Below, piece by piece: positions 21,121 to 30,793 of a DNA stretch of 64,000 nt. How positions within the stretch are numbered: position 1 is the first letter of the stretch; every line of letters starts with the position of its first letter. The notes beneath the pieces are model-generated. The model was not told where the DNA came from. It searched no databases and saw nothing but the letters and a program-made list of their open reading frames with translations. The DNA is from Myxococcales bacterium (lineage in GTDB: Bacteria > Myxococcota_A > Polyangia > Haliangiales > Haliangiaceae). Both the position numbers and the translations under genes were made by a program. The DNA lies in contig JADJGV010000002.1 in NCBI GenBank assembly GCA_016707895.1, positions 527,695 through 591,694 of the forward strand, read 5' to 3'.

Positions 21121-21173
21121 CCACGTGCCCGCGGTCACGGCGTCAGCTGCGCGGGGTCGCCGTTGGCGCCGGC
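21121..21173. repeat. 53-bp perfect direct repeat, copy A (3' end of SWIM gene + stop + 11 nt)
   Basis: CACGTGCCCGCGGTCACGGCGTCAGCTGCGCGGGGTCGCCGTTGGCGCCGGCG is identical to 30741..30793. On the minus strand it encodes ...AGANGDPAQLTP*. Confidence 0.7.
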
Positions 21174-23084
21174 GAGTCGCTCCAGATCGGCGTGAGGCGC
21201 CAGCGCGGCCAGGGCGAACAGGTCGAGGGTCGCGGCGACGTCCCCGGTACCGGCCCGGCCGAGCAGCGGCGCCAGCCGCGACATCGCCAGCGCGGTCGCG
21301 GCCGTGCCGGCGCGGACCGCGAGCGGCGCGGCGGCGCGGAGCCCCTGCAGCAGCGTCGCGTCGAGGAAGTCGTGCCAGGCCCGCCGCACCGGTCGCAGCG
21401 GGTCGTCGCCGGGGTCGCCGGGCGCGTCGTGCGGACCATCGGCGGCGGGCGCGTCGGGCGCGGCGGCGCGGGGCGGCGCGACGTCGAGGACGACCAGCCG
21501 GGTCGTGACGACGGCCAGCGGTCGCATGCGCCAGCCAGCGGCCCGGGCCTCGAGGACACCGGCGACGAAGCGTGGCGTGGCGGCCAGGGCCGCGGCCAGC
21601 GCGTCGACCGCGCCCGGGCACACCGCCTCGAAGTCGCAGCACAACGTCAGCGGGTTGTCGGCGGCGTCGTGCACCACCGCGATCAGCTCGAGCCCGTCGG
21701 CGCTCACCGCGACCCGCGCGACGCGCGCGATCGCCACCACCGCCACGCCGTGGCCGATCAAGCGCGGGGCCACCACCGCGGGCGGCCCCGCGGCGAGCCG
21801 GCGGGCGTGGGCGCGCAGGTCGCGCACCAGGATCGGCTCGGGCAACGCGTCCCAGCCGCCGCCCGCCGGGAGCAGCGTCGACTGCATGCTGCGCGACGCG
21901 CCGAGATCGAGCGCCCCGTTGGCCTTGCGCCGCGCCGCCCGGGTCACCAGCTCGCCCTGCACCAGCTCGGTGATCGACATCCGGCTCGACGCGAACAGCC
22001 TGCCGAGCTCGGGGCCGTTGCGGCGCTCGCCGCTCCACGCCTTGGCCAGCACCAGCACGGTCGCGGTGTCGGGATCGACGAAGTACAGCGACGCCAGCCG
22101 GCGATCATCGTCGGCGACCAAGCGACAGCCCAACGCCACCAGCCGCACCTTCTCCATCGCGACGTCGGCTGGCGCGTCGCTGCCCAGCACCCACGCCGGC
22201 CGCAGCTCGGGCACGTCAGCCGCCGCGGCGCGCGCCCGCACCAGCAGCTCGCCGACCAGCGCGGTCAGCGTCGCGGCGCGGAAGCTGGCCTTCGCGGCGG
22301 CCAAGCGGTCGACCTCGCGCTCGTAGGCCTCGCAGGCGTCGGCGATCCACGCCCACCGCTCGCGCACCGCCAGCGCGCGCAGCGCCTCGGTCCGCTCGGC
22401 GGCGCCCGGCGCGGTCACGCCGAACTGGCAGATCTGCGCGGCCCACTGCTCGACCGCGTCGCGCGCGGTCACGCCAGCTCGAGCCGCCCCCTCGGTGGCG
22501 GCGCCGCCGCCGAACACCGCCAAGCCACCGTCGGGGCGCTGGCGGAACCCGCGCACGGCCAGGACGACGTGTTCGCACGCGGCGCCCTTGCTGCAGTCGC
22601 ACTTGGCGAAGGGCAGCGACCCCGGCACCAGGAACTGCACGGTGGCCATCGGCAAGCGAGCCACTGGCGCAGCCCCGGCCTCGACGGTGATGGTCAGCCC
22701 GGCGGCGGCCAGGCGGTCCGCGATGGCGACGCCGGCGCCGCAGGTCGCGGCCACCTCGGCGTCGTTGAACGCCCCGGGATCCCACGCGGTCGCCGCCGCC
22801 GCGGTGCTGCCGAACTGCCGCTGGTAGGCGAGCACCGCGGTCAGCCGGTGCCGACACACCGTCGCGGCGCCGCAGGTGCACGGCGCCGCGGCCAGGGTCG
22901 CTCGCGGCGGCAAGCGGGTGGTCGCGCCGTCCTTGCTGACCGCGACCACCGTGCCGTCGGCGTCGACGGTGAGGTCGGTCACCGCGCCGGCCTCGGCGTC
23001 CTTCAGCGCGCGCTTGACCAGGCCGACGTTGGCCAGGCGGGTGAGCGCGTCGGTCGTGAGCGCCAGCAGATCGGCGCGCGTCAC
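21135..23084 (-). CDS. SWIM zinc-finger domain protein (YehQ-like)
   Basis: SWIM CxC...CxH signature CTCGAATVCRHRLTAVLAY. GTG start overlaps the TGA of the upstream vWA gene (GTGA). Confidence 0.7.
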   Translation of the reverse strand: MTRADLLALTTDALTRLANVGLVKRALKDAEAGAVTDLTVDADGTVVAVSKDGATTRLPPRATLAAAPCTCGAATVCRHRLTAVLAYQRQFGSTAAAATAWDPGAFNDAEVAATCGAGVAIADRLAAAGLTITVEAGAAPVARLPMATVQFLVPGSLPFAKCDCSKGAACEHVVLAVRGFRQRPDGGLAVFGGGAATEGAARAGVTARDAVEQWAAQICQFGVTAPGAAERTEALRALAVRERWAWIADACEAYEREVDRLAAAKASFRAATLTALVGELLVRARAAAADVPELRPAWVLGSDAPADVAMEKVRLVALGCRLVADDDRRLASLYFVDPDTATVLVLAKAWSGERRNGPELGRLFASSRMSITELVQGELVTRAARRKANGALDLGASRSMQSTLLPAGGGWDALPEPILVRDLRAHARRLAAGPPAVVAPRLIGHGVAVVAIARVARVAVSADGLELIAVVHDAADNPLTLCCDFEAVCPGAVDALAAALAATPRFVAGVLEARAAGWRMRPLAVVTTRLVVLDVAPPRAAAPDAPAADGPHDAPGDPGDDPLRPVRRAWHDFLDATLLQGLRAAAPLAVRAGTAATALAMSRLAPLLGRAGTGDVAATLDLFALAALAPHADLERLAGANGDPAQLTP

Positions 23085-24193
23085 TTCACGACCCCCTTCA
23101 GGTACTCGACGAGCTGGAACGGCGTCATCGCGCCGACCGACGCGCCGGCACGCACCATGCGCTGGCCCAGCTCACGATCGTAGGTCGGCGTCGCGGTCGC
23201 GTCGAGCGCGGCCAGGGTCACGAACCGCACGCCCTGGGCCACCAGCCGGCGCGTGGTGCGGACCAGATCGTCGGGGCTGCCGCCCTCGTAGAGGTCGGTG
23301 ATCAGCACGATCATCGTCCGCGCCGGGTTCTCGACCAGGCCCTCGGCGTAGCGCACCGCGCGGGCGATGTCGGTGCCGCCGCCGAGCTGCACCTTCATCA
23401 GCGTCTCGACCGGGTCGGCGAGGTGCGTGCTCAGGTCGACGACCTCGGTGTCGAACGCGATCAGGTGGAGCTTGATCGCCGGCAGGCCGCACAGGCACGC
23501 GGCGGTGACCGCGGCGTGGATCACCGAGCCCACCATGCTGCCCGACTGGTCGACCGCGACGATGATCTGCCACTGCTCGCCGTGGCGGCGTTGCCGGCTC
23601 CAGAACAGCGGCCGCTCGATCACCAGCTGGCGCCGCGCCGGCACCCAGTGGCCGAGGTTGGCGCGGATGGTGCCGCGCGGGTCGAAGTTGCGCATCGTGC
23701 GGTGCGACGAGCGCCGCCGCTGGCGACTGCCGGCGAAGGTCGAGCGCACCTGGGTGGCCAGCGCCTCGATCAGCCGCGCCACCACCTTGCGCACCAGCTC
23801 GCGCGCCAGCCCCAGCACCTCGGCGCTCATCAGGTGCTTGGTCAGGAGCACCGCGCGCAGCAGCGTCTCCGACGGCTCGATGCGCGCCAGCACGTCCTTG
23901 TTGGTCACCACCTCGTGCAGCCCGAACTCCTCGACGGCGTCGCGCTCGAGGCGCTCGATGGTCTCGCGCGGGAACAGCGCGTGGATCTGGTTGATCCACT
24001 CGGGCACCGCCAGCGTCGACGGCGATAGATCGGCGCCGCGCTCGTCGCGCTCGCCGAGCGCCGCGTCGCGACCGTACAGCCAGTCGAGCGCCGCGTCGCG
24101 CGCCAGGTCGGACGCGTCGACGCCGCCCGGGCCGTCGAGCTCGGCGGCCGCGGCCTTGCCCAGCACCAGCCGCCACCGCACCAGCGGGTTCAC
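23081..24193 (-). CDS. VWA domain protein, CoxE family (YehP-like)
   Basis: MIDAS-type motifs are present: ...IIVAVDQSGSMVG..., ...GGGTDIARAV..., ...LITDLYEGG... The GTGA start/stop overlaps with the upstream gene. Confidence 0.8.
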   Translation of the reverse strand: MNPLVRWRLVLGKAAAAELDGPGGVDASDLARDAALDWLYGRDAALGERDERGADLSPSTLAVPEWINQIHALFPRETIERLERDAVEEFGLHEVVTNKDVLARIEPSETLLRAVLLTKHLMSAEVLGLARELVRKVVARLIEALATQVRSTFAGSRQRRRSSHRTMRNFDPRGTIRANLGHWVPARRQLVIERPLFWSRQRRHGEQWQIIVAVDQSGSMVGSVIHAAVTAACLCGLPAIKLHLIAFDTEVVDLSTHLADPVETLMKVQLGGGTDIARAVRYAEGLVENPARTMIVLITDLYEGGSPDDLVRTTRRLVAQGVRFVTLAALDATATPTYDRELGQRMVRAGASVGAMTPFQLVEYLKGVVK

Positions 24194-30600: not shown

Positions 30601-30685
30601 CCCACGTGGTCGTGAAGCTCGATCCGCTCAGCTGGATGTCCCAGAACTTGTTCGACGTCCCCTCCGAGAACTCGTAGCGCGGCAT
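27644..30685 (-). CDS. WGR-domain + DUF4132-like large protein (MolR/YehI-like)
   Basis: N-terminal WGR domain ([36 protein letters not shown]), then a PAKAAP x3 linker, long helical repeats, and a C-terminal DUF4132-like region. The ATG at 30685 is preferred over the upstream TTG at 30721. Confidence 0.7.
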   Translation of the reverse strand: [1013 protein letters not shown]

Positions 30686-30740
30686 CGGTCCGACGGTACC
30701 GAACGCCCGCGCGGCCAGCAATCGCCGGGCCGCGCCGTCA

Positions 30741-30793
30741 CGTGCCCGCGGTCACGGCGTCAGCTGCGCGGGGTCGCCGTTGGCGCCGGCGCT
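30741..30793. repeat. 53-bp perfect direct repeat, copy B (3' end of MVP gene + stop + 11 nt)
   Basis: Identical to 21121..21173. Confidence 0.7.

Follow-up and report, generated by a model that had tools for sequence, protein, structure and literature searches.

An old duplication of a major vault protein gene tail, probably refreshed by recent gene conversion, flanks a five-gene cassette in a Myxococcales genome

How did two unrelated genes come to end in exactly the same nucleotides, on either side of a block of genes? The question is raised by a 64-kb stretch of DNA from a Myxococcales bacterium (contig JADJGV010000002.1 of assembly GCA_016707895.1, positions 527,695 to 591,694; hereafter the window). 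In this window, a gene for a homolog of the major vault protein (MVP) stands next to a cassette that comprises WGR/DUF4132, MoxR, DUF5682, VWA and SWIM genes only, and the MVP gene and the SWIM-type zinc-finger gene share an identical 3' end. We call T the short 3'-end piece of the MVP gene that is present again at the end of the SWIM gene, and we distinguish its two occurrences as the MVP-side copy and the SWIM-side copy. Related loci are cited by L numbers. The explanation that we consider probable is that T is an old junction duplication of the MVP tail, refreshed by recent ectopic gene conversion.

An exact search of the window confirmed a perfect 53-nt direct repeat, present twice on the plus strand, at 21122-21174 and 30739-30791, with a start-to-start spacing of 9617 nt. 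The first-pass annotation had recognized both repeat sites, with positions that were off by 1-2 nt. No third copy with up to three mismatches occurs in the window, and none is expected across 100 shuffles. Ungapped extension lengthens the match to 62 nt (21113-21174 and 30730-30791) with three mismatches, all of them within the added 9 nt. Read on the minus strand, each copy is C GCC GGC GCC AAC GGC GAC CCC GCG CAG CTG ACG CCG TGA CCGCGGGCACGTG, that is, 1 nt, 12 codons (AGANGDPAQLTP), the stop codon TGA and 13 nt beyond it, and not 11 nt as first counted. The open reading frame (ORF) coordinates bear out that the repeat forms the 3' ends of both the MVP and the SWIM ORFs, and exactly five genes lie between the copies. 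The tail peptide occurs only twice in the six-frame translation of the window, the G+C content of which is about 75%. Judged by its homologs, the organism, an uncultured population, belongs to the Kofleriaceae (Myxococcota).

To which of the two genes does this tail belong? We surveyed the ends of the 120 best MVP homologs, down to about 68% identity. An NG dipeptide is found within the last 25 residues in 95 of the 120, and close homologs end in ..NGEPAQLTP, ..NGEPPRLTP or ..NGEAPRLPGA, compared with ..NGDPAQLTP in the window. SWIM homologs of other genomic contexts stop right after a conserved ..PHADL(A/E/V)RLA, as ..RLA* in L025, ..RLADG* in L002 and ..RLADARA* in L023. The NGDPAQLTP-type tail is not present in SWIM homologs outside the window's own 90% cluster, in which all nine full-length proteins retain ..ERLAGANGDPAQLTP. 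Because MVP homologs carry the tail and SWIM homologs of other contexts do not, the tail is native to MVP and was grafted onto SWIM. The graft follows a GCC (Ala) codon, at a point where the MVP and SWIM sequences have CGCC in common; the SWIM-side copy is thus joined to the native SWIM end ..GAG CGA CTC | GCC via a microhomology of 4 nt.

The duplication is older than its perfect identity would suggest. In the sister lineages L006 and L019, which have the same MVP-cassette arrangement, remnants of T are found at the end of the SWIM gene. The SWIM end of L006 reads GCC GCC GAC GAG CCC GCG CGA CCG GCG CCG TGA CCGCCACCACG, aligned as GCCGCCGAC GAGCCCGCGC GACCGG CGCCGTGACCG CCACCACG, and its own MVP end reads ..GGC GAG CCC GCG CAG CTG ACG CCG TGA CCGTCGCCACG. 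The alignment score of the two ends is 46, as against at most 38 among 469 control windows. The L019 SWIM gene has the end ..GCG CCG CCG CCG TGA CCGTCGCCGCGACGGCCCCCGGGCC. This post-stop CCGTCGCCGCGACGGCCCCCGGGCC matches the L006 spacer between MVP and WGR genes, CCGTCGCCACGACGGCGGGCCCCCGGGCGG, up to the GATTGC motif (blastn-short E=2.8e-5); it is the best non-self match and sits exactly at the stop codon. The motif, GATTGC..N17..TACCGT, lies at about 30695-30725 in the window, about 7 nt before the start codon of the WGR gene, and is kept in L002, L023, L006 and L019. The SWIM-side copies of L006 and L019 have undergone in-frame deletions of 6 and 15 nt plus substitutions, so that the frame and the stop codon of T are retained, and their SWIM tails have drifted to ADEPARPAP and AAAAPPP. 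A degenerate MVP tail and spacer at the SWIM end of both lineages indicates that the duplication, of about 70 nt, is old and was already present in their common ancestor with the window. The cassette in other contexts has no significant flanking repeat: its flanks score 24 in L002, versus a null mean of 25.7, and 34 in L023 (reached by 1.2% of controls), but there the aligned segments lie off the cassette boundaries. T therefore belongs to the MVP junction and not to the cassette.

If the duplication is old, why are the two copies in the window identical at 53 of 53 positions? The MVP-side copies of the window and of L006 differ at 6 of 53 positions: GAC versus GAG in the coding part, and five in the 13 nt after the stop (CCGCGGGCACGTG versus CCGTCGCCACGAC). 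The L006-type sequence is ancestral, since the old SWIM-side copy of L019 preserves it. All six derived states of the window MVP-side copy are also present in the window SWIM-side copy, which is strongly different from the SWIM-side copies of L006 and L019 (indels of 6 and 15 nt). In L019 itself, an old SWIM-side copy occurs together with the derived MVP-side copy, which equals that of the window over more than 110 nt beyond the stop. This indicates that the derived allele arose at MVP and was then copied to SWIM. Judged from these sequence comparisons, a recent MVP-to-SWIM gene conversion of about 53-62 nt would best explain the perfect identity, and the earlier proposal that identity including non-coding bases reflects recent recombination is supported. 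Given that the tail is kept throughout the full-length SWIM proteins of the 90% cluster, the conversion predates the diversification of the window population.

A second SWIM-side allele is found in L032-L035, which are 99.2% identical to the window. It reads CTC GCG TGC GCC AAT GGT GAC CCC ... TGA CCGCGGGCACGTGAC and departs from the MVP-side copy at four of its first 15 nt but at none of the 41 that follow (Fisher p=0.004). Three of the four changes are synonymous, and identity to the MVP-side copy reaches 2 nt further 3' than the end of the window tract. This mosaic suggests a different or partial conversion tract, and thus that conversion occurred more than once.

The genomic contexts of the genes in related genomes bear on which part of this arrangement is older. 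The order MVP, cassette, gene for a 232-residue protein (232-aa gene) and gene for a cNMP-binding and PRK/uridine-kinase-like protein (PRK gene) is also present in L006, L007 and L017, with 92% nucleotide identity to the window over 14.9 kb, and L019 has the same order without the 232-aa gene. When window 20358-21127 is set against L019 11924-12032, one boundary of this indel falls inside the old MVP spacer copy, which implies that this intergenic spot has been rearranged repeatedly. The five-gene module itself occurs in at least four genomic contexts, each time with the same boundaries, from the GATTGC..N17..TACCGT motif to the SWIM stop (window 21135-30725). Without MVP, the cassette is located between Peptidase_M90 and 472-aa genes in L002, beside LysM and alkaline phosphatase genes in L025, and between a Rieske gene and 3HCDH-thiolase genes in the MVP-less outgroup L022/L023. 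This outgroup and the window have both outer flanks in common: the GAF, two ABC permease and Rieske genes correspond to window 38321-36086 (69-94% amino acid identity in tblastx segments), and identities to the window are 79% for Rieske, 86% for 3HCDH and 90% for thiolase. In L023 the Rieske stop is about 10 nt from the GATTGC motif of the cassette. In the window about 5.3 kb separate the Rieske gene from this motif and contain a secreted-protein gene, a 355-aa gene and MVP with T. The cassette is thus probably an older resident between Rieske and 3HCDH, and the cassette block is probably older at this locus than MVP. A 218-aa gene beside SWIM in L022 had been considered as the counterpart of a 224-249-aa gene of the window clade; the two are not homologous, so the shared synteny rests only on the outer flanks, on the Rieske side and on the 3HCDH-thiolase side.

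MVP is found alone, with unrelated neighbors, in L014 and in L010 (which belongs to the genome of L002), at 90% identity, and its homology to the window stops at 30751 or 30747, i.e. at the stop codon. PRK homologs at 90% (L026) and 81% (L029) identity also lie in unrelated contexts. In this group, gene order has undergone heavy reshuffling, with single genes or single operons as the units, and the adjacency of MVP to the WGR/VWA/MoxR module is lineage-specific. An empty site, i.e. MVP-T-PRK or MVP-T-232-aa gene without the cassette, was not found around MVP in L010 and L014 or PRK in L026 and L029, within a limited sampling. Scans of genome and metagenome contigs with the SWIM protein gave one and three loci, none of which is an empty site. 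Likewise, no deletion variant with MVP joined directly to the 232-aa gene is present among six contigs that carry the window's 232-aa protein; SWIM is found upstream wherever such a contig reaches that far, and two contigs begin within the repeat. In L029 (12671-14938) the PRK homolog adjoins IS66-family transposase genes and a GmrSD/AAA_21 cluster. The genomes of the group thus carry active mobile elements, none of which is near the window repeat.

Taken together, these comparisons lead us to propose two steps. In the ancestor of the window, L006 and L019, an old rearrangement would have put MVP upstream and the PRK/cNMP gene downstream of the cassette. In this event about 70 nt of MVP sequence would have come to stand behind the final native SWIM codon, namely the last 13 codons, the stop and about 30 nt of spacer up to the cassette motif. 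The join would have taken place in frame at the CGCC microhomology, so that SWIM ends at the stop codon of MVP. Most likely it came about by template switching during replication or by some other illegitimate join at a microhomology. The SWIM-side copy then decayed in the sister lineages, and the comparison of lineages points to a second, recent step in which it would have been overwritten from the MVP-side copy in the window lineage. This non-reciprocal conversion of about 53-62 nt would have followed the lineage-specific changes gained by the MVP-side copy, and there may be more than one such tract in the population, as the mosaic allele of near-identical strains suggests. As a result, the cassette would have come to lie within a 53-bp direct repeat, and two otherwise unrelated proteins would share their last 12 residues. 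This account of the repeat can do without a recombinase, an RNA structure or a protein-tag function. As for the first step, the T-cassette-T structure, with T flush at both boundaries and the 4-nt microhomology, is compatible with two routes. Either the cassette was inserted by template switching into an MVP-T-PRK unit, or the cassette was already resident and MVP-T and T-PRK were added on its two sides. The common Rieske...3HCDH synteny favors the resident cassette, and an MVP-T-PRK unit was found nowhere.

Several points weigh against this reconstruction. As no empty MVP-T-PRK site was found, the first step is reconstructed and not observed. The sister-lineage repeats are short and GC-rich. 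The SWIM-side copy of L019 does not match its own MVP-side copy significantly (score 33, 5% of controls), and the case for L019 is the match to the L006-type sequence. The reading of the mosaic allele is based on its comparison with the window-type MVP-side copy. The lineages are moreover mosaic: window and L019 are closest in MVP (98-99%) and PRK (95-97%), L006 and L019 in the 5' half of WGR and in SWIM. Such incongruent identities (window 18200-33100 versus L006 and L019) point to homologous exchange on the scale of the cassette that took place between lineages and had its break points close to both copies of T, and because of this exchange the order of events is only imprecisely fixed. An acceleration of substitution rate as the cause of the odd SWIM distances is less likely than recombination; inside the cassette the window is not closer to L019 than to L006. 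Finally, conversion seeded by runs of 10-11 nt of diverged homology would be inefficient for RecA, so that its route may have been RecA or template switching.

How do other explanations fare against the same data? A chimeric join or duplicated contig end, raised as a possibility by the first-pass annotation, has next to no chance of being the cause. It would account for the fact that two short-k assemblies break inside the SWIM-side copy: L031, a Logan contig, begins at window 21151, and L035, a 1-kb MEGAHIT-style contig, at 21158. However, this is the assembler behavior expected at a repeat or strain-variant bubble. Both copies and the same 62-nt pattern are present in three longer assemblies, the window, L001 (ENA ERZ27275381, MEGAHIT-style contig k141_628987) and L030 (NCBI GCA_943370995.1, CALRTH020000018.1), with unique sequence on all four sides. 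Full-length alignment of L001 and L030 to the window gives 99.2-99.3% identity. Across the 10.8 kb from repeat to repeat, 40-61 substitutions (0.4-0.6%) separate the three assemblies from one another, with no variable site within 170 nt of either copy. Because three differing assemblies span both copies, the repeat is not an artefact. Its 53 nt are also shorter than typical reads and than k=141 (inferred from the k141_ contig names), and the homologous, diverged structure exists in the sister lineages. A recent insertion would instead make the repeats fresh scars of the entry of the 9.6-kb cassette at the MVP 3' end, either as a Campbell-type circle with the 53-bp segment or with a 53-bp target duplication. 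The geometry speaks for it: the repeats directly abut the cassette, with the MVP-side copy ending just before GATTGC..TACCGT and the SWIM-side copy beginning after the last native SWIM codon. Relocation does occur, as the at least four contexts of the cassette in related genomes tell, and MVP stands alone elsewhere with homology ending at its stop codon. Nevertheless, we regard it as unlikely, and the suggestion that the cassette came in recently via the repeat is not supported. L006 and L019 have the same MVP-cassette-PRK order with a decayed T, so that the junction is older than the window lineage; the cassette of the MVP-less outgroup is enclosed by the outer flanks known from the window; and neither significant flanking repeats in L002 and L023 nor an empty site was found. 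It would be still harder to see the copies as attL and attR of an integrative or otherwise site-specifically mobilised element, a reading to which we give very little weight. In its favor, integrative elements typically produce direct repeats that are tens of bp long and restore the 3' end of the target gene. But no integrase, transposase or relaxase was found between the repeats with Pfam, NCBIfam and PADLOC, or in the flanking genes with Pfam, and the repeats are missing around the cassette elsewhere and degenerate in the sister lineages.

Could selection have kept the copies identical? Under this explanation both genes would make use of the 11-12-residue tail, for instance as a tag for sorting, assembly or degradation that links SWIM to the vault shell, or of the 53 nt, as a 3' regulatory element. 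The retention of the tail in the whole 90% cluster and the mostly synonymous changes of the mosaic allele are compatible with such a role, as are the SWIM-side indels of L006 and L019, all multiples of 3 and all using the stop of T, and the fact that conversion apparently happened more than once. Against this, the SWIM tail drifts in sister lineages of the same gene order, SWIM homologs in other contexts do without it, and identity runs 13 nt past the stop, which a peptide tag would not need. With the tail confined to the window's 90% SWIM cluster and decaying outside it, capture of a shared C-terminal tag, as once suggested, is not borne out. An RNA element or terminator was rejected too, as folding of the repeat segment showed no excess over shuffled sequence (z +0.19 to +1.09), the segment contains no terminator-like site and no promoter match, Rfam gave no match, and the 64 kb hold no third copy. 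We therefore judge selected identity quite unlikely. A bolder idea is that the repeated conversion is not neutral: the MVP tail would dock SWIM to a vault-like shell, or the 53-bp pair would act as a recombinase-independent switch for precise loss and regain of the 9.6-kb module in the population that leaves MVP intact. The chance of this seems slim to us. If the docking were true, the WGR/MoxR/DUF5682/VWA/SWIM module would be functionally linked to MVP.

The features of the locus are collected in Table 1. The MVP gene encodes a full-length bacterial major vault protein homolog. A search with it gave 6559 homologs at E<=1e-20 among 8000 candidates scored, mostly from metagenome-assembled genomes of Myxococcota, and no database record is identical to the exact window product (831 residues as translated). 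For the cassette genes PADLOC gave no matches and NCBIfam only sub-threshold domain matches, none of them informative, and the idea of a defence system or named family was dropped. Literature searches on the cassette and on bacterial MVP yielded nothing useful. Within the WGR gene, an 18-nt tandem repeat at 30366-30429 (3.6 copies, 91% matches) encodes a (PAKAAP)n low-complexity linker, and this linker region is the most divergent part of the gene between lineages (80-86% nucleotide identity). Beyond the PRK gene, the window lineage has two genes at 16590-18200 (12881-14440 in L030), between the PRK gene and the 224-aa(-)/3HCDH genes, that are not present in L006 and L019: a 224-aa gene on the strand of the PRK gene and a 279-aa Flg_new_2 gene on the opposite strand. 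Further repeats lie elsewhere in the window. A 37-nt tandem repeat at 58756-58919 has 4.5 copies with 91% matches (TGGGATGCCGGCGGCGCCGGCCGCGCGATCTCCCACG); two arrays 1.2 kb apart, at 46165-46288 and 47480-47542, have the common core GGGTCGCAGCGACTCGGAT (periods 37/15 and 21); and a 66-nt repeat pair at 40229-40293 and 40322-40387 is 95% identical.

Table 1. Positions of the two T copies and of the genes around them in the window
Feature	Position	Strand	Basis or remark
GAF, two ABC permease genes, Rieske gene	36086..38321	-	Outer flank common to window and MVP-less outgroup L023
MVP homolog	30752..33247 or 33418	-	Pfam MVP_shoulder 8.6e-26, Vault_3 1.9e-08
Copy B (MVP-side, donor)	30739..30791	-	Last 12 MVP codons, TGA 30752-30754, 13 nt of MVP-WGR spacer; imperfect extension to 30730
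WGR + DUF4132 gene, first of the cassette	27644..30688	-	Pfam
MoxR-type AAA_5 ATPase gene	26508..27647	-	Pfam and gene models
DUF5682 gene	24190..26505	-	Pfam
VWA_CoxE gene	23081..24193	-	Pfam
SWIM-type zinc-finger gene	21135..23084	-	CxC..CxH motifs; last 12 codons and stop from the MVP tail
Copy A (SWIM-side, recipient)	21122..21174	-	Last 12 SWIM ORF codons, TGA 21135-21137, 13 nt; imperfect extension to 21113
232-aa putative lipoprotein gene	20386..21084	-	Directly downstream of copy A; in window lineage and L006, not in L019
cNMP-binding + PRK/uridine-kinase-like gene	18214..20331	-	Downstream neighbor in all three MVP-linked lineages

What does this locus teach? Its main value is that of a worked example: the repeat resembles a fresh insertion scar or an att site, and the sister lineages show instead an old junction duplication that gene conversion has probably kept young. 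Annotators should not take the 12-residue tail for a functional motif, nor the cassette for a mobile island, on the present evidence alone. The lineage-specific adjacency of MVP and the module is weak evidence of a functional link between them. In principle, the 53-bp repeat makes the cassette deletable by homologous recombination.

Among known arrangements, the cargo has its closest likeness in the molR/yehI-yehLMPQ cluster of Escherichia coli, which we take to have the same domain set (WGR/DUF4132, AAA_5 MoxR, DUF5682, VWA_CoxE and SWIM) and to be of unknown function. We know of no MVP neighbor and no shared tail there, and the likeness concerns the cargo and not the repeat. Like attL/attR pairs, the window repeats measure tens of bp, lie on either side of a block of several genes and leave the 3' end of the upstream gene intact. 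They differ from such pairs in that the block is without a recombinase and that the repeats are missing around the cassette elsewhere and decayed in sister lineages. Template switching of the type described as fork stalling and template switching or microhomology-mediated break-induced replication produces insertions with flanking duplication. The 4-nt CGCC microhomology at the junction of SWIM and T, and a duplicated segment that abuts the block at either end and exceeds by far the length of a transposase target duplication, resemble such cases. Unlike them, the event in the window is ancient and rebuilt from three lineages only, and its donor, MVP-T-PRK, was not found. Ectopic gene conversion between dispersed paralogous segments is well known in bacteria, e.g. 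for tufA/tufB and for rRNA operons. As in this concerted evolution, the window copies are more alike than either is to its sister-lineage orthologue, copying goes one way only, the tracts end sharply, and mosaic alleles occur in the population. In contrast to tufA/tufB and rRNA conversion, the unit in the window is only 53-62 nt long, and instead of a duplicated gene it is a 3' end transplanted between unrelated genes, with a rearrangement scar as the homology that seeded the conversion. The window repeat most likely adds one more case of ectopic gene conversion, a known process, which worked here on an old junction duplication.

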